From the NCBI RefSeq assembly GCF_988242995.1, contig NZ_OZ547043.1: a stretch of 64,000 nt of DNA. The stretch is one strand, 5' to 3'. The notes beneath the pieces are model-generated. The model saw only the letters and a program-made list of their open reading frames with translations, did not search any database and was not told where the DNA came from. Both the position numbers and the translations under genes were made by a program. Shown here piece by piece: positions 15,234-47,869 of the stretch. Position 1 is the stretch's first letter. Every line of letters starts with the position of its first letter.

Positions 15234-17990
15234 ATGACCAACTACAGCCTGCGCGCACGCATGATGATTCTGATCCTGGCACCGACCGTCCTTATTGGTT
15301 TATTGCTGAGTATCTTTTTCGTTGTGCATCGCTATAACGATTTGCAGCGTCAACTGGAAGATGCCGGAGCCAGCATTATTGAGCCGCTTGCAGTTTCTAC
15401 TGAATATGGCATGAGCCTGCAAAATCGCGAATCTATCGGTCAGTTAATAAGCGTACTGCATCGTCGCCATTCCGATATTGTTCGCGCGATTTCGGTTTAT
15501 GATGAAAATAACCGACTCTTTGTCACCTCCAATTTTCATCTTGATCCCTCATCAATGCAGCTCGGCAGCAACGTGCCGTTTCCTCGCCAGCTCACTGTCA
15601 CTCGTGACGGCGATATTATGATCCTCCGCACACCGATTATTTCTGAGAGTTACTCCCCCGACGAATCGCCCAGTAGCGATGCCAAAAATAGTCAAAATAT
15701 GTTGGGATATATTGCGCTTGAGCTGGATCTTAAATCGGTTCGCTTGCAGCAATATAAAGAGATCTTTATTTCCAGCGTGATGATGCTGTTTTGTATCGGT
15801 ATTGCGCTTATTTTTGGCTGGCGCTTAATGCGCGATGTAACCGGTCCGATTCGCAATATGGTGAATACCGTCGACCGCATCCGTCGCGGGCAACTCGACA
15901 GCCGGGTGGAAGGATTTATGCTCGGCGAGCTGGATATGCTGAAAAACGGTATCAACTCGATGGCAATGTCGCTGGCTGCTTATCACGAAGAGATGCAGCA
16001 CAATATCGACCAGGCGACGTCCGATCTGCGTGAAACGCTGGAGCAGATGGAAATTCAGAACGTTGAGTTGGATCTGGCGAAAAAGCGTGCCCAGGAAGCG
16101 GCGCGTATTAAATCCGAGTTTCTGGCAAATATGTCACACGAGCTGCGTACACCACTGAATGGTGTTATTGGCTTTACTCGCCTGACGCTGAAAACAGAAT
16201 TAACACCAACGCAGCGCGATCACCTGAATACGATTGAACGTTCGGCAAATAATTTGCTGGCAATTATTAATGATGTTCTCGACTTCTCGAAACTGGAAGC
16301 AGGTAAGCTGATTCTGGAAAGTATTCCATTCCCACTACGCAGCACGCTGGATGAAGTCGTTACCCTGCTGGCACATTCTTCTCACGATAAAGGGCTGGAA
16401 CTGACGCTCAATATTAAGAGCGACGTGCCCGATAACGTAATTGGCGACCCACTGCGATTACAGCAAATCATCACTAACCTGGTAGGGAATGCAATTAAAT
16501 TCACCGAGAATGGCAACATTGATATTCTGGTAGAAAAACGTGCGCTGAGTAATACCAAAGTGCAGATTGAAGTGCAGATTCGGGATACCGGCATTGGTAT
16601 TCCTGAACGCGATCAATCGCGCTTATTCCAGGCCTTCCGACAGGCTGATGCCAGTATTTCCCGCCGTCATGGTGGCACCGGGCTGGGGCTGGTGATTACA
16701 CAAAAACTGGTTAATGAAATGGGCGGCGATATTTCGTTCCATAGCCAGCCGAATCGCGGTTCAACTTTCTGGTTCCACATTAATCTCGATCTGAACCCGA
16801 ACATTATTATCGAAGGGCCATCCACCCAGTGCCTAGCCGGCAAGCGCCTGGCCTATGTCGAACCAAACTCCGCAGCAGCGCAATGCACGCTGGATATTTT
16901 AAGTGAAACGCCGCTGGAAGTGGTTTATAGCCCAACGTTCTCCGCGCTGCCTCCCGCGCATTACGACATGATGTTGTTAGGCATCGCGGTGACCTTCCGC
17001 GAGCCGCTAACAATGCAACATGAGCGATTAGCGAAAGCGGTATCGATGACCGATTTTCTGATGCTGGCACTTCCTTGCCATGCACAAGTCAATGCTGAAA
17101 AACTTAAGCAAGATGGTATCGGCGCGTGTCTGCTGAAACCATTAACACCTACGCGCCTGTTACCTGCCCTGACGGAATTTTGTCATCACAAACAAAACAC
17201 GCTTTTGCCTGTAACCGATGAAAGTAAGCTGGCAATGACAGTCATGGCGGTTGATGACAACCCCGCTAACCTGAAACTTATCGGCGCATTGCTGGAAGAT
17301 ATGGTGCAACATGTGGAACTTTGCGATAGCGGGCATCAGGCGGTTGAACGGGCGAAACAAATGCCGTTCGATTTGATCTTAATGGATATTCAAATGCCGG
17401 ACATGGACGGCATTCGGGCCTGCGAGCTCATCCACCAGCTCCCCCATCAGCAACAAACGCCAGTTATCGCGGTAACGGCGCATGCAATGGCCGGGCAAAA
17501 AGAGAAGCTGCTTGGCGCAGGGATGAGCGATTATCTGGCGAAACCGATTGAAGAAGAGCGATTGCATAATTTGTTGTTGCGCTACAAGCCTGGCAGCGGT
17601 ATTTCCTCTCGCGTCGTGACGCCCGAAGTCAACGAAATTGTGGTGAACCCGAATGCGACCCTCGACTGGCAACTGGCACTACGCCAGGCAGCAGGAAAAA
17701 CCGATTTAGCGCGCGATATGCTGCAAATGTTACTCGATTTCCTGCCTGAAGTTCGCAACAAAGTTGAGGAACAGCTGGTTGGAGAAAACCCGGAAGGCCT
17801 GGTTGATTTGATTCATAAACTGCATGGCAGTTGCGGCTATAGCGGTGTGCCGCGTATGAAGAATCTCTGCCAACTGATCGAACAACAGCTACGTAGCGGT
17901 ACTAAAGAAGAAGATTTGGAGCCGGAGCTGCTGGAACTGTTAGACGAGATGGATAATGTAGCGCGCGAAGCCAGCAAAATTCTCGGGTAA
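15234..17990 (+). CDS. barA: Hybrid sensor histidine kinase of the BarA/UvrY two-component system
   Basis: 918-aa ORF with HAMP, HisKA (H-box SHELRTPLN), HATPase, receiver and HPt domains. Confidence 0.95.
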
Positions 17991-18121
17991 CGGACGTCTT
18001 GTCGAGTCAAAATAGGTTCCGTCCAATGCCAATGCTGGGAGCAGCACAGACAGTCCCCTCGCCCCTCCGGGGAGAGGGCGAGGGGGAAAACCGGCCCCGT
18101 AAACCACTTCGTCAGTAATCT

Positions 18122-18160
18122 CAAACCGACTTCTTATGAAGCCGGTTTTGGTTTTCTGTC
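18122..18160 (+). terminator. Probable barA intrinsic terminator
   Basis: Imperfect hairpin (aaaccgacttc-ttat-gaagccggttt) followed by ttttggttttc. Confidence 0.4.
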
Positions 18161-19501
18161 TTAACGCACCATGCACGGGCGCTTGTTATCAAACGTCCAG
18201 CCAGGAATCAGATACTGCATTCCCATCGCATCGTCTCGCGCACCAAGCCCATGTTTCTGATACAGCTCGTGGGCTTTCATCACCTGATCCATATCGATTT
18301 CTACGCCCAATCCTGGTTTTTGCGGCACCTGTACCAGCCCGCCTTTGATCTCAAACGGTTCTTTGGTCAGACGCTGATTGCCTTCCTGCCAGATCCAGTG
18401 CGTATCAATAGCAGTAATTTTACCCGGTGCAGCAGCGGCTACATGAGTAAACATCGCCAGGGAAATATCGAAGTGGTTGTTAGAGTGTGAACCCCAGGTC
18501 AGGCCAAATTCATGGCACATTTGCGCCACACGTACCGAACCTTGCATCGTCCAGAAATGCGGATCCGCCAGCGGGATATCAACGGATTGTAACGAGAGCG
18601 TATGGCCCATCTGCCGCCAGTCGGTGGCGATCATATTGGTTGCGGTCGGCAGGCCAGTCGCGCGACGGAACTCTGCCATCACTTCACGCCCGGAGAAACC
18701 TTGCTCCGCACCACACGGATCTTCTGCATAAGCCAGCGAACCTTTCAGGTATTTACCAATTTTAATCGCTTCGTTCAGCGACCAGGCACCGTTAGGATCG
18801 AGGGTAATACGCGCCTGTGGGAAGCGTTGCGCCAGTGCCACAATAGATTCTGCTTCTTCTTCCCCGGCCAGTACACCGCCCTTCAGTTTGAAATCGTTGA
18901 AGCCATATTTTTCATATGCCGCTTCCGCCAGGCGCACCACCGCATCCGGCGTCATCGCTTCTTCGTGACGCAGGCGATACCAGTCACATTTATCATCCGG
19001 CTGGCTTTGATACGGCAGCGGTGTGGCTTTGCGATTACCGACGAAGAACAGATAACCGAGCATTTCGACTTCGCTACGCTGTTGACCATCGCCCAGCAGC
19101 GATGCCACGTTAACCCCCAGATGCTGCCCCAGCAGATCCAGCATTGCCGCTTCTATCCCGGTAACCACATGAATAGTGGTCCGCAGGTCAAATGTCTGCA
19201 AACCGCGCCCGCCGGCATCACGATCGGCAAATGTATTACGCACCAGCGTCAGAACGTTTTTGTATTCACCCAGCGTTTTACCCACCACCAGCGGAATCGC
19301 ATCTTCCAGCGTTTTACGGATTTTCTCGCCGCCGGGAATTTCCCCTACCCCGGTGTGACCAGAATTATCTTTGATAATCACAATATTACGCGTGAAGAAC
19401 GGTGCGTGTGCACCACTCAGATTCATCAGCATACTGTCATGGCCCGCCACCGGGATGACCTGCATTTCAGTAACAACAGGCGTCGAAAATTGAGAACTCA
19501 T
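18161..19501 (-). CDS. gudD: Glucarate dehydratase
   Basis: ORF track 18161..19525; start moved to [20 protein letters not shown]; enolase-superfamily fold, paralogous to the upstream gene. Confidence 0.9.
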
Positions 19502-19521
19502 CTTTATGTCCTTTTTCAAAA

Positions 19522-20862
19522 TCAATGACGGCCGAAAACGGGACGTTTACAGTCAAAGGTCCAGCCGGGGATCAGGTACTGCATCGGGCCCGCGTCGTTA
19601 CGCGCACCCCCAGGCAGACGTTTATAGGCCTCATGCGCCTTTTGTACCTGCTCCCAGTCCAGTCCCACGCCCAGACCGGGCGCATCAGGAACGGCAATTT
19701 TTCCGTTTTTAATCTCCAGCGGATTTTTGGTCAGGCGACAATCGCCCTCCTGCCAAATCCAGTGGGTATCGATAGCGGTAGGATTACCCGGTGCCGCCGC
19801 ACCCACATGGGTAAACATCGCCAGAGAGATATCAAAGTGGTTATTGGAATGGCAGCCCCAGGTCAGCCCCCAGTCGTCGCAAAGTTGCGCCACGCGGACT
19901 GCACCGGAAAGCGTCCAGAAGTGCGGATCGGCAAGTGGAATATCTACCGCATTGAGCATCACCGCATGGCCCATTTCGCGCCAGTTGGTGGCGATCATGT
20001 TAGTCGCGACGGGCAAGCCGGTCGCCCGTCGAAACTCCGCCATCACTTCACGTCCGGAGAACCCCTGTTCTGCTCCGCATGGATCTTCAGCATAGGTAAG
20101 AACATCATTCAGCCCTTTGCACAGAGAAATGGCTTCATCAAGCAGCCATGCACCGTTGGGATCAACGGTAATCCGCGCATCCGGGAAGCGTTTCTTCAAT
20201 GCACGAACAGTGTCGATTTCTTGCTCGCCAGGTAACACGCCGCCCTTAAGTTTGAAATCTTTAAAGCCGTAGCGATCCTGTGAGGCTTCCGCCAGACGCA
20301 CAACGGCTTCGCTGTTCATCGCTTTCTGATGGCGCAACTGATACCACTCATGGTTGCCCGGCGTATTTTCCAGATAAGGAAGATCGGTTTTGGTCCGATC
20401 ACCGATATAAAACAGATAACCGAGGACGGTAATAGCCTCGCGTTGCTTGCCTGGCCCCAACAGTTCGCAGACCGGAACATTCAGCGCCTTACCTAGCAGG
20501 TCAAGCAAGGCGGCTTCCAGCGCCGCCACGGCATTAACGCGCAATTCAAAAGTCCAGGCACCTTTGCCGAAGGTATCAAAATCGGCTGCCTGATTACCTT
20601 TATGCACCTGCTGAACCACTTTATTCAGGCGCGCAACTTCCTGGCCCAACACCATCGGAATAGCATCGACCAGTGTCTGATAAATCACCTCTCCGCCTGG
20701 CGCTTCACCAATGCCGGTATGCCCGGCGTTATCGGTGAGTACCACAATATTGCGAGTGAAATATGCGTTATGCGCCCCACCAATATTAAGCAACATGCTA
20801 TCGTGCCCGGCGACCGGAATGACTTTCATATCAGTAATAACAGGACTGGATTGTGTCGTCAT
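19522..20862 (-). CDS. gudX: Glucarate dehydratase-related protein
   Basis: 446-aa ORF, paralogous to gudD with long identical peptide blocks ([25 protein letters not shown]). Confidence 0.9.
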
Positions 20863-20863
20863 C

Positions 20864-22216
20864 TTATTGCCCCGCGACAGGTTTCAGCTCGATACGCTTG
20901 ATATCGCCCACCAGCACCAGGTAGCTCAGTACCGCGATTAAGGCATGAACACCAACATAAATCAGCGCCCCATTAAAGGAGCCAGTCGTGCCAACGATAT
21001 AACCAATTGCGATTGGCGTGACGATGCCAGAAATGTTACCGAACATGTTGAACAGGCCACCGGAAAGACCGCTGATCTCTTTTGGCGCGGTATCAGCCAT
21101 TACTGCCCAACCCAGCGCCCCGATGCCCTTACCGAAGAAGGCCAGCGCCATAAAGCCGATGATCATCCACTCAACGTTGACGTAGTTGCAGAACACCATC
21201 ACCATCGACAGCAACATGCCCATTACGATCGGTGTTTTACGCGCAATGTTCAGCGATCCCGTGCGGCGCATCAGCCAGTCGGAAATAATCCCACCCAGCA
21301 CACCGCCGATAAAACCGCAAACCGCCGGAACGGAAGCCACAAAGCCCGCTTTCAGAATCGACATCCCACGCGCCTGCACCAGATAAACCGGAAACCAGGT
21401 AATGAAAAAGTAAGTCAGGGCGTTGATACAGTACTGACCGATATAAACGCCGATCATCATCCGTGACCCGAGCAGCTGTTTGATCTGCCCCCACTTCACG
21501 CTGAACGGCACTTTAACTTTGGTATTTTGCTGATCCATATTGATCAGCGCGCCACCCGCGGCGATGTACTCCAGCTCTTTCTGATTTACACCCGGATGTT
21601 GATTTGGCTCGTGGATGACTTTCAACCAGATAAAGCTGATGACAATGCCCAGACCGCCCATAAAGAAGAAGACGTGTGACCAGCCCACTTCATGCGTCAG
21701 CCAGCCCATAATCGGCGCGAAGATCACCGTTGCGAAGTATTGAGCGGAGTTAAAAATCGACACCGCCGTTCCCCTTTCCTGCGCCGGAAACCAGGCCGCA
21801 ACAATGCGACTGTTGCCGGGGAAAGATGGCGCTTCAGCAAGCCCGACCAGGAAGCGCAGCGTAAACAGGGCAACGATAATGCCGAATCCACTAAAAATAT
21901 CGACGAAGCCTTGCAGCAAGGTAAACATCGACCAGATAAAGATCGACCAGAAGTAGACGCGTTTTGAACCAAAACGATCCAGCAACCAGCCACCAGGGAT
22001 CTGCCCGATAACATAAGCCCATGAGAAAGCAGAGAACACATAGCCCATTCCCACAGGATCAAGGCCGATATCTTTGGCCATTTCCGAACCGGCGATAGAG
22101 AGCGTAGCGCGGTCGCCGTAGTTGAAGGATGTGACGATAAACAACATCACCACTATCCAGTAACGAGCATTCGTGCGTTTTTCCACACTGCTCGCAGCCT
22201 GACTTAAAGAACTCAT
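20864..22216 (-). CDS. gudP: Glucarate/galactarate MFS transporter
   Basis: 450-aa hydrophobic MFS ORF immediately upstream of gudX in the same orientation. Confidence 0.9.
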
Positions 22217-22670
22217 TGTTGCACTCCTGAAAATTCGCGTTAGCCACGCTCACTCTGGACTGCGACATCGCCAGGAAATCAGAGGTGACGTAGGGTGTTT
22301 TTTGCCGTTTTTATAGGTCGTTCGCCGAATACGGCGCGTGTTTATATCTGGCAATAGCAGTATAAAAAGCGCGCCATAGCGGCTCACCGTGCAACAACAC
22401 AACATTAATGCGTTCAATGAGGCCCAATTTTGGCATTAGCCCTGGACGGTGGAATCCACTTCACGGAAATGAAAACAAGAACAAGAAAGGAAGGGTTAAA
22501 ACGAAGAAATAAAGAAGAGTATGAAATGGATCGCTTGACTCCAGGCAAACGCCAGTAAAAATCCGCGCTATGAAGCAGTTTTTACTGGCATTTGCCTGAA
22601 AAGATTCGATTCAGCACCGCTAAAACGGCATTTACACCGCTAAAACGGCATTTACCGCTCGCTGAACGTA

Positions 22671-23120
22671 TCAGGACAACAGCGTGCCCCAATGTTCGAC
22701 CCACGGATTTGATTCCGTTTCCGGTTCCGGGTTCTCACTGGCGTCAATCAACAGCATTTCGCCAACCCGCTGAGCGCTCTGTTCCTGCAACAAGGCATCG
22801 AACTGTTTGCCACCATTGCAGAAATTCACATAACTACTGTCGCCGAGCGCAATCACGCCATAACGCAGATTCGGCTGGAAGCCCAGGGTATCTTTAATTC
22901 CCTGAAAGAGCGGCACAATGCTATCAGGAAGGTCGCCCTGCCCGGTCGTGGACGTAACCACCAGAACATACTTATCCTGATAGGGCAGCCAGTCGCTTAA
23001 TTCAGGATCTTCAAATACCGTTGCTTTGTGGCCCTGCGCGGTCAGAATTGCTTCCGCTTCTTCCGCCACTAACAGCGAATTTCCGTACATAGTGCCGACA
23101 AAAATACCAATTTCCGCCAT
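22671..23120 (-). CDS. yqcA: Flavodoxin-like protein
   Basis: 149-aa ORF with flavodoxin signature ([22 protein letters not shown]). Confidence 0.85.
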
Positions 23121-24249: not shown

Positions 24250-24293
24250 AAAGCAACCTCAATAAGAAAAACTGCCGCGAAGGATAGCAGGAA

Positions 24294-24660
24294 TAAAAAA
24301 AGGGAGCACTGTATTCACAGTGCTCCCGGTTCGTTTCGCAGCATTCCAGCTACTTTTGTTGCTCCCTGCTCATCCTTGACAACTTTTCCTCTGGCCTTGC
24401 GGCCAATCGTTCATCCTGAACTATTGCTTCCTGCTCACACCACCCCGATGTGATACTTCATCCTGAAGTGTCCCTGGCCTTCCTGACCCACCGAATCATC
24501 CTGACCGGTTCTCATTCTCCATCCTGGAGGTGTCCTTTAACGCGTCCTGCGTCATCCTCTTCGCTTCATCCAGAAGCCTTTCCCTGAAACACCATCCTGG
24601 TGTGTCCTTCAGAAGTGTCATCATCCTGATGTTCACTTCGTTGTCTGACTCCCTGTCGAC
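24294..24660 (-). ncRNA. csrB: CsrB small RNA (CsrA-sequestering), with 3' intrinsic terminator
   Basis: Minus strand begins gtcgacagggagtc and carries many CAGGA(U/A)G repeats (seen as catcctg on the + strand); ends in hairpin gggagcactgtgaatacagtgctccc plus U-run (24294-24327). Confidence 0.9.
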
Positions 24661-42880: not shown

Positions 42881-43086
42881 ACTTCCTGAGCCGGAACGAA
42901 AAGTTTTATCGGAATGCGTGTTCTGGTGAACTTTTGGCTTACGGTTGTGATGTTGTGTTGTTGTGTTTGCAATTGGTCTGCGATTCAGACCATGGTAGCA
43001 AAGCTACCTTTTTTCACTTCCTGTACATTTACCCTGTCTGTCCATAGTGATTAATGTAGCACCGCCTAATTGCGGTGCTTTTTTTT
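42881..43086 (+). ncRNA. gcvB: GcvB small RNA (Hfq-dependent)
   Basis: Begins acttcctgagccggaacgaaaag, contains the GU-rich gttgtgatgttgtgttgttgtgtttg region and ends in gcaccgcctaattgcggtgc plus U-run. Confidence 0.9.
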
Positions 43087-46039: not shown

Positions 46040-46250
46040 TTAAAAAGGGCGAGGTTATCCCTCACCCTAAACGCATAAATGCCTGATGCGCTACGCTTAT
46101 CAGGCCTACATAACTCCTGCAATATTTTGGATTTGCATGATTTGTAGGCCGGATAAGGCGTTCACGCCGCATCCGGCATGAACAACGCGCACTTAGTCAA
46201 TAATCAGGATGTGAGGTTACCCCTCACCCTGTCATATCCGTAAAAACGGC
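46040..46250. repeat. Composite REP cluster flanked by near-identical GGTGAGGG-type hairpin units
   Basis: REP units gcctgatgcgctacgcttatcaggcctaca and gtaggccggataaggcgttcacgccgcatccggca; flanking repeats gaggttatccctcaccct (46052-46069) and gaggttacccctcaccct (46215-46232). Confidence 0.7.
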
Positions 46251-47571: not shown

Positions 47572-47648
<77 letters not shown>

Positions 47649-47681
47649 ATTAAAATTTGATGAAGTAAAGCAGTACGGTGA

Positions 47682-47758
<77 letters not shown>

Positions 47759-47792
47759 ATCAAAATTTGATGAAGTAATAGCAGTACGGTGA

Positions 47793-47869
<77 letters not shown>

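Follow-up and report, generated by a model that had tools for sequence, protein, structure and literature searches.

The tandem paralogues gudX and gudD of Escherichia coli: an old duplication, identical peptide blocks and natural gudX::gudD hybrid genes

In E. coli, D-glucarate catabolism is served by the operon gudP-gudX-gudD, which is under CdaR control and ends with the genes gudX and gudD. The pair is already known, and both proteins have been crystallised (in E. coli K-12, GudD as PDB 1EC7 and GudX as PDB 4IL0; operon gudPXD). The activity of GudX, a glucarate dehydratase-related protein (GlucDRP), is low. Glucarate is converted by GudD to 5-dehydro-4-deoxy-glucarate, and GarL, GarR and GarK act next (PMC11077982). 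In Salmonella, gudT-ygcY-gudD are controlled by CdaR and share a single promoter (PgudTYD operon), and S. Typhi requires a functional GudD for growth on glucarate even though its ygcY coding sequence is apparently intact (PMC11077982).

The window studied here is a stretch of 64,000 nucleotides of contig NZ_OZ547043.1 (assembly GCF_988242995.1). It shares the genes, their order and the RefSeq annotation with the K-12 operon, and its version of the pair represents allelic variation only.

The gudX-gudD pair in the window

Two minus-strand ORFs were found exactly where the initial annotation had placed adjacent same-strand genes for proteins of about 446 aa. The locus is composed as follows:

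18161..19501, minus strand: gudD, D-glucarate dehydratase (GlucD), 446 aa (ORF; TIGR03247; PDB 1EC7; RefSeq annotation of an identical locus)
19502..19521, minus strand: gudX-gudD spacer of 20 nt, TTTTGAAAAAGGACATAAAG, with a Shine-Dalgarno-like AAGGA inside (sequence reading)
19522..20862, minus strand: gudX, glucarate dehydratase-related protein (GlucDRP), 446 aa (ORF; PDB 4IL0 and 4GYP chain C; RefSeq gudX)
20864..22216, minus strand: gudP, MFS glucarate/galactarate transporter, the first gene of the operon (ORF; TIGR00893, 538.6 bits; annotation)

According to the junction sequence, the gudX ATG starts 1 nt past the gudP stop codon. For gudD we used the annotated ATG, which gives 446 aa; the ORF listing runs on to a TTG at 19525. 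The locus of E. coli Z1323HEC0462 is 100% identical, and in its RefSeq annotation gudD, gudX and gudP sit between barA and yqcA. Compared with K-12-like strains, the window alleles show about 96% nucleotide identity, and two substitutions, E400G and R438C, are private to the window GudX. A promoter and terminator consensus scan of positions 17900-22750 found fewer sites than in shuffled controls.

Membership in the enolase superfamily, also proposed by the initial annotation, is confirmed by the Pfam MR_MLE_N/MR_MLE_C domains on homologues, by TIGR03247 and by near-identity to PDB 1EC7, 4IL0 and 4GYP. GudD matches 1EC7 over its full length (residues 1-446, 1028.8 bits) and scores 899.1 bits with the TIGR03247 equivalog (EC 4.2.1.40), above the cutoff of 828.7; judging from its sequence, it is predicted to carry out the glucarate dehydratase reaction that yields 5-dehydro-4-deoxy-glucarate. 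GudX matches 4IL0 (1033.6 bits) and chain C of 4GYP (1032 bits), an entry which holds both chains, GudX having been co-crystallised with GudD as a heterotetramer. The TIGR03247 score of GudX (745.1 bits) lies under the cutoff, and the protein is therefore not counted among the glucarate dehydratases.

In the alignment to GudD, 15 active-site positions were checked, and GudX has the same residue at every one of them. They include K205/K207 (KxK), D235, E260, N289, D313, H339 and N341; in GlucD, H339-D313 form the His-Asp dyad, and D235, E260 and N289 are the metal ligands. With the KxK motif, the dyad and the three carboxylate/amide metal ligands at the ends of the barrel strands present in GudD and in the aligned GudX, both proteins belong to the mandelate racemase subgroup of the superfamily. 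Identity between them is the highest (76%) in GudD residues 201-380, which hold the catalytic residues, and the lowest (49%) in residues 51-200. GudX is a long-diverged GudD paralogue which has kept every catalytic residue but is not covered by the curated GlucD equivalog.

Age of the duplication and the identical peptide blocks

Orthologous loci of Escherichia, Salmonella, Enterobacter, Buttiauxella and Erwinia (Erwinia persicina) were compared, giving a set of ten proteins. The gudP-gudX-gudD tandem is found in the GudX-encoding loci from E. persicina, Enterobacter, Buttiauxella and Salmonella. The ten proteins fall into two clean clades, GudX and GudD, with orthologues being about 85-97% identical; every X-D pair, taken from the same genome or from different genomes, has 63-66% identity. 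The window GudX is 84-96% identical to GudX of the four other genera versus 63-65% to GudD, and its gene sits between gudP and gudD, as expected of a member of the GudX orthologue group. PDB scores suggest an even deeper divergence: GudD matches PDB 1BQG (756 bits) better than its own neighbour GudX (646 bits), and GudX matches PDB 3N6H at 784 bits versus 646-654 bits to GlucDs.

Synonymous sites of gudX and gudD are saturated (pS 0.69, dS about 1.9), with third-position identity of about 43%. Among E. coli strains dN/dS is 0.033 for gudD and 0.044 for gudX, indicating strong constraint on both genes. An old tandem duplication, as the initial annotation had it, agrees well with the clean clades in five genera, the constant identity of the paralogues and the dS value. 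The duplication is older than the split between Enterobacteriaceae and Erwiniaceae, with the copies evolving independently afterwards.

BLASTP aligns GudX and GudD with 284 identities over 448 positions (63%; 569 bits, E = 0). The longest run of identical residues is 28 aa, the others being 16, 12, 12, 11 and 11 aa long. The 25-aa peptide quoted in the initial annotation is present in both proteins, within the 28-aa run, which aligns at these positions:

18647..18730, minus strand: 28-aa identical block, gudD copy, with the metal ligand E260 inside
20011..20094, minus strand: 28-aa identical block, gudX copy

At the DNA level 68 of the 84 nt of this block are the same in gudD and gudX, with pS of 0.77 and pN of 0. 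As the block is kept in 10 out of 10 GudX and GudD orthologues and is encoded by divergent codons, identity of the peptides reflects purifying selection and not recent conversion. As part of an explanation which we hold with high confidence as a whole, the identical blocks are active-site and barrel segments under purifying selection in both copies, and not traces of recent DNA exchange.

Alternatively, the blocks (28, 16 and 12 residues) could be maintained by ongoing gene conversion between the tandem copies, that is, by concerted evolution, and the initial annotation supposed that the nucleotide similarity could still support such conversion. However, synonymous sites are saturated even within the 28-aa block, so that neither gene conversion nor concerted evolution has left a visible trace. 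The paralogues are not closer to each other than orthologues are, their identity being equal within and between genomes of five genera, and no tract of low synonymous divergence was found in the pair.

Conversion was also looked for in polymorphism data from ten normal E. coli loci, where the number of minor alleles carrying the base of the paralogue was compared with the expectation from transition/transversion bias. No significant excess was registered: gudD is slightly above expectation, with 25 such changes versus 19.4 (n=45), but gudX shows 24 versus 22.3 (n=56). In a megablast search of 5,422 E. coli genomes with the whole locus, at most 4 had any extra paralogous match. Since a conversion tract of about 40 nt or more would give a second matching place, this number bounds the frequency of such tracts. 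A gudD-like tract inside gudX was suspected in H79, the one suspicious BLAST extension, and rejected: this is an ordinary gudX with an alignment extension artefact. In two strains gudD has the gudX base at a small cluster of 3-4 synonymous sites (nt 1290/1296/1299), and this cluster could represent a conversion patch of at most 28 nt. Taken together, these data make ongoing conversion a very improbable source of the identical blocks, and we retain purifying selection as their explanation. Identical peptide blocks in old paralogues need not signal DNA exchange; it is the synonymous sites that decide.

gudX::gudD hybrid genes and other deletions

The minimal efficient processing segment of RecA/RecBC recombination is 23-27 bp (PMC12074656). 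Codon-aligned nucleotide identity of gudX and gudD is about 65%, and the longest in-register perfect run measures 14 nt in the window; K-12-like strains reach 20 nt, and only the N53/20Ec-P-124 lineage reaches 26 nt. The pairwise alignment proposed by the initial annotation has thus found in the window what that annotation named as the refuting outcome: at about 65% identity and with a longest run of 14 nt versus 23-27 bp, the two copies are formally too dissimilar for homologous recombination. Three islands of identity, named here after the peptides they encode, are relevant for what follows:

20810..20817, minus strand: VIPVAG island, gudX side, junction of type-1 hybrids (ST540 group); CCGGTGGC in K-12-like strains and CCGGTCGC in the window
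19446..19453, minus strand: VIPVAG island, gudD side
19805..19824, minus strand: SLAMFTHV island, gudX side, junction of the type-2 hybrid (2018-01-1CC); 20 nt are the same as in gudD in K-12-like strains, 14 nt in the window
18441..18460, minus strand: SLAMFTHV island, gudD side; ACT in place of ACC interrupts the run in the window
19559..19584, minus strand: MQYLIPGWT island, gudX side, junction of type-3 hybrids; perfect over 26 nt in the N53/20Ec-P-124 lineage, 3 mismatches in the window
18195..18220, minus strand: MQYLIPGWT island, gudD side

Compared with K-12-like gudX and gudD, substitutions in the window cut the shared islands to 14 nt or less. All three sites are broken by SNPs, therefore the window allele pair is less deletion-prone than K-12-like pairs.

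Chimeric alleles in other genomes, which the initial annotation suggested looking for, do exist. To find deletion alleles, 1,500 nt of barA were abutted to 1,500 nt of gudP and compared with 5,426 complete E. coli genomes; the two halves join only if a genome lacks 873 nt or more of the intervening sequence. A deletion was found in 20 genomes (17 joined at 80% coverage or more, 3 joined partially). In 13 of the 5,426 records, corresponding to 12 strains, both genes are replaced by a hybrid, and hundreds of draft contigs carry hybrids as well. Each hybrid is a single gene of 445 aa with the 5' end of gudX and the 3' end of gudD. Mosaics of diagnostic sites show one X-to-D switch, which corresponds to an in-register deletion of 1,364 nt. 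Three types were distinguished:

Type 1: AZ147, three ST540 genomes, 22F46, 23CRST022, B18271 and CM148361 (8 genomes); 8-nt run CCGGTGGC at codons 16-18; differs from a K-12-like parent by 1 mismatch; 467 contigs encode exactly this protein
Type 2: strain 2018-01-1CC, represented by two records; 20-nt run CTGGCGATGTTTACCCATGT, the longest in K-12-like strains; exact protein on 1 contig
Type 3: GmF052, MS20654 and 1442 (3 genomes); 26-nt run ATGCAGTACCTGATCCCCGGCTGGAC, the longest of the parental lineage; proteins on 37 and 14 contigs

The type-1 product is essentially GudD with 16 GudX residues. The halves of the hybrids differ from contemporary parental alleles by 0-6 mismatches (0-1 for L005 and L007), and GmF052 shows 0 mismatches to the gudX and gudD of strain N53. 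No mention of the hybrids was found in the searchable literature; gudX/ygcY came up there only incidentally, and nothing was found under GlucDRP or "glucarate dehydratase-related protein".

Could these genes be assembly or annotation artefacts? Some aberrant proteins in the database do look like errors (see below), and the type-2 hybrid is known from a single strain. However, the type-1 junction is found in 8 independent complete genomes and the type-3 junction in 3, both recur on the numerous contigs listed above, the mosaics are nearly perfect copies of parental alleles in L005 and L007, and the flanking gudP and barA are intact and collinear. Besides, assemblers cannot collapse gudX and gudD, as the copies have only 65% identity. 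We find an artefactual origin scarcely credible and treat the hybrids as real genes.

In the respective parental lineages, no other in-register run is as long as the 20- and 26-nt junction runs, which make up just 1.5% and 1.9% of the gene. Location of two out of three junction classes at the longest island argues for dependence on homology length. The type-1 junction is only 8 nt, and many off-register repeats are at least as long, so that homology length can be only part of the explanation. The observed set of hybrids may be biased by selection for products that stay in frame. We lean towards the view that the conserved active-site blocks serve as recurrent in-register deletion hot spots which have given rise in E. 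coli to three or more natural GudX::GudD hybrid enzymes fixed in their lineages, the crossover points being codons ~17, ~350 and ~433. The reciprocal gudD::gudX product, expected in a triplicated locus, was not found at the 20- or 26-nt islands. Deletion between the copies, another possibility raised by the initial annotation, is thus supported by the hybrids of 13 complete-genome records with junctions of 8, 20 and 26 nt, while the 14-nt run of the window is below the RecA/RecBC minimum.

Relatives of unusual length were collected by a protein-database search with GudX. Among proteins longer than 446 aa only P0007, P0013, P0004 and P0005 are clean out-of-register fusions, with microhomologies of 3-9 nt at the junctions. 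These and one further deletion are as follows:

P0007: out-of-register fusion of 583 aa on at least 24 contigs; 950-nt deletion at the 3-nt TGC
P0013: out-of-register fusion of 462 aa; 1,312-nt deletion at a microhomology of about 9 nt
P0004 and P0005: out-of-register fusions of 679 aa from Salmonella; 662-nt deletion at the 8-nt GCGGCGCG, mapped at the DNA level for P0004
gudP'-'gudD deletion: loss of 1,828 nt at TGGC; seen in three complete genomes

P0002 and P0003 were rejected as true fusions, being read-through products of frameshifts, and so were P0001 and P0010, which are scrambled duplications and probably errors. Strain 2452, which has the weakest whole-locus match, was considered as a possible chimera of the paralogues; it has lost 2.2 kb at a junction that contains REP, an event which has nothing to do with paralogy.

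Hybrids, pseudogenes and deletions might merely reflect the loss of gudX, if this gene is a redundant, decaying duplicate. Several observations fit such a scenario: GudX is under the GlucD equivalog cutoff, gudX of O157:H7 SS17 carries an internal stop, a hybrid that is nearly gudD is spread over 467 contigs, and S. Typhi depends on GudD in spite of its ygcY. On the other hand, dN/dS of gudX in E. coli is as low as that of gudD, its orthologues (84-96% identity) are retained beside gudD in five genera, and all of the checked catalytic residues are intact. The whole locus is kept in 5,403 of 5,422 genomes, and type-3 hybrids remove gudD rather than gudX. Decay of gudX is therefore an improbable account of these alleles.

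If the conserved blocks are indeed deletion hot spots, type 1 would roughly amount to a gudX deletion (467 contigs), and another hybrid, type 3, to the loss of gudD with the body of GudX retained (37 and 14 contigs). As such, the hybrids are natural experiments on GudX function and on the dependence of deletion on homology length in the wild. Hybrid strains could be used to ask if GudX can sustain growth on glucarate by itself, and what it adds when present. The hybrids are a modest by-product of the present analysis, and their main interest lies in what they may reveal about the function of GudX.

Deletion mechanism and comparison with known systems

We infer both the deletion pathway and the hybrid phenotype. 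The conserved blocks leave, as a side effect, perfect nucleotide islands of 8-26 nt depending on the strain (14 nt at most in the window). Occasionally, these islands act as in-register deletion junctions, with one 1,364-nt unit lost and one 445-aa hybrid left. Most of the events were probably deletions at short homologies that did not require RecA, the direct repeats lying about 1.36 kb from each other. As the likely pathway we prefer template switching, or annealing of short homologies, involving sister strands. RecA could be involved only at the 20-26-nt islands, of which the 26-nt junction would be long enough for RecA/RecBC. The surrounding similarity of 75-80% probably aids in-register pairing. 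It appears that, at 65% overall identity, islands of 8-26 nt maintained by selection suffice for in-frame hybrid genes to form and to survive in natural clones of E. coli. With respect to the initial annotation as a whole, the old tandem duplication stands and so does deletion, in other strains, while gene conversion and identity sufficient for classical homologous recombination in the window do not.

The two tuf genes, tufA and tufB, are nearly identical in nucleotide sequence through gene conversion (concerted evolution). Like them, gudX and gudD are two paralogues per genome with long identical peptides; unlike them, they have saturated synonymous divergence and form separate orthologue clades.

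Human delta-beta globin genes of the Lepore type are hybrids that arose by meiotic unequal crossing-over between tandem paralogues about 90% identical. The gud hybrids likewise consist of a 5' segment from the upstream gene fused in register to a 3' segment from the downstream gene, with the loss of exactly one repeat unit. They differ in the identity of the parental genes (65%), and searches at the 20- and 26-nt sites gave no triplication comparable to anti-Lepore.

In E. coli, DNA between short direct repeats can be deleted independently of RecA, through template switching or exchange between sister strands (Lovett et al., 1993, cited by PMC12074656; PMC5426353). As in this system, the gud hybrids have lost DNA between direct repeats about 1.3 kb apart, and the gud junctions of 3-26 nt are mostly below 23-27 bp, although the 26-nt junction could be RecA-dependent. 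The distinguishing feature of the gud locus is that its repeats are homologous positions of diverged paralogues, and the product of deletion is therefore an in-frame hybrid enzyme gene.

Clustered substitutions and rearranged alleles

Between nt 1290 and 1323, gudD of two E. coli strains (loci L013 and L018) carries a cluster of synonymous changes, every one of which is identical to the gudX base. This cluster creates the 26-nt identity run of the type-3 hybrids, the in-register gudX::gudD deletion genes whose junction lies in the island encoding MQYLIPGWT. Its origin could be parallel transitions or a micro-conversion that spanned no more than 28 nt.

Other changes concern gudX. Among the relatives found by the protein-database search, P0012 is a GudX variant with a 33-aa internal tandem duplication, while P0024, P0026 and P0045 are variants with in-frame internal deletions of roughly 29–42 aa. 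These four proteins suggest more short-repeat rearrangements inside a single gudX copy. In one strain, E. coli O157:H7 SS17, a stop at codon 74 interrupts gudX (L014, 1504–2844), which the annotation treats as a pseudogene; gudD is intact. GudX of the window carries two substitutions, E400G and R438C, both of which are missing from nine other E. coli alleles. Position 438 was also inspected in GudX orthologues of four other genera, and the residue is arginine in them.

The barA–gudD spacer and additional matching places

The spacer between barA and gudD (window 17991–18160) is polymorphic among E. coli, being 170 nt long in the window versus 231 nt in the K-12-like locus L010. A GC-rich palindrome, CCCCTCGCCCCTCCGGGGAGAGGGCGAGGGG, is located inside the spacer of the window at about 18055–18085. 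REP-like elements are found at the junction of the 2.2-kb gud locus deletion of strain 2452, which is unrelated to the gudX/gudD paralogy. In the whole-locus megablast, the first aligned base of most E. coli matches was query base 20 or 41.

Searches of E. coli genomes with gud/barA queries found one or two matching places in plasmid-labelled records and up to three in some genomes. The gud/barA region is therefore also present somewhere in further, incomplete copies.

RNA genes elsewhere in the window

Rfam scanning at the gathering threshold located the last three of the following features; CsrB matches RF00018 with 382.9 bits.

RNA features of the window
24292–24651, minus strand, CsrB sRNA
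42881–43086, plus strand, GcvB sRNA
46102–46144, minus strand, ES036 sRNA match
47572–47866, plus strand, tandem array of three equally scoring tRNA genes

The CsrB gene is flanked by yqcC and syd and lies about 6 kb from barA. The sensor kinase BarA controls csrB via UvrY.

Gene order around gud in other genera

Neighbouring genes in Erwinia persicina (L019), Enterobacter (L020) and Salmonella (L022) were assigned by Pfam families and gene order. The context of the gud locus varies among these genera. A glycerate kinase gene separates gudD from barA in both Salmonella and Enterobacter. In Erwinia persicina, gudPXD is preceded by a garD-like gene and directly followed by genes matching garL, garR and garK.
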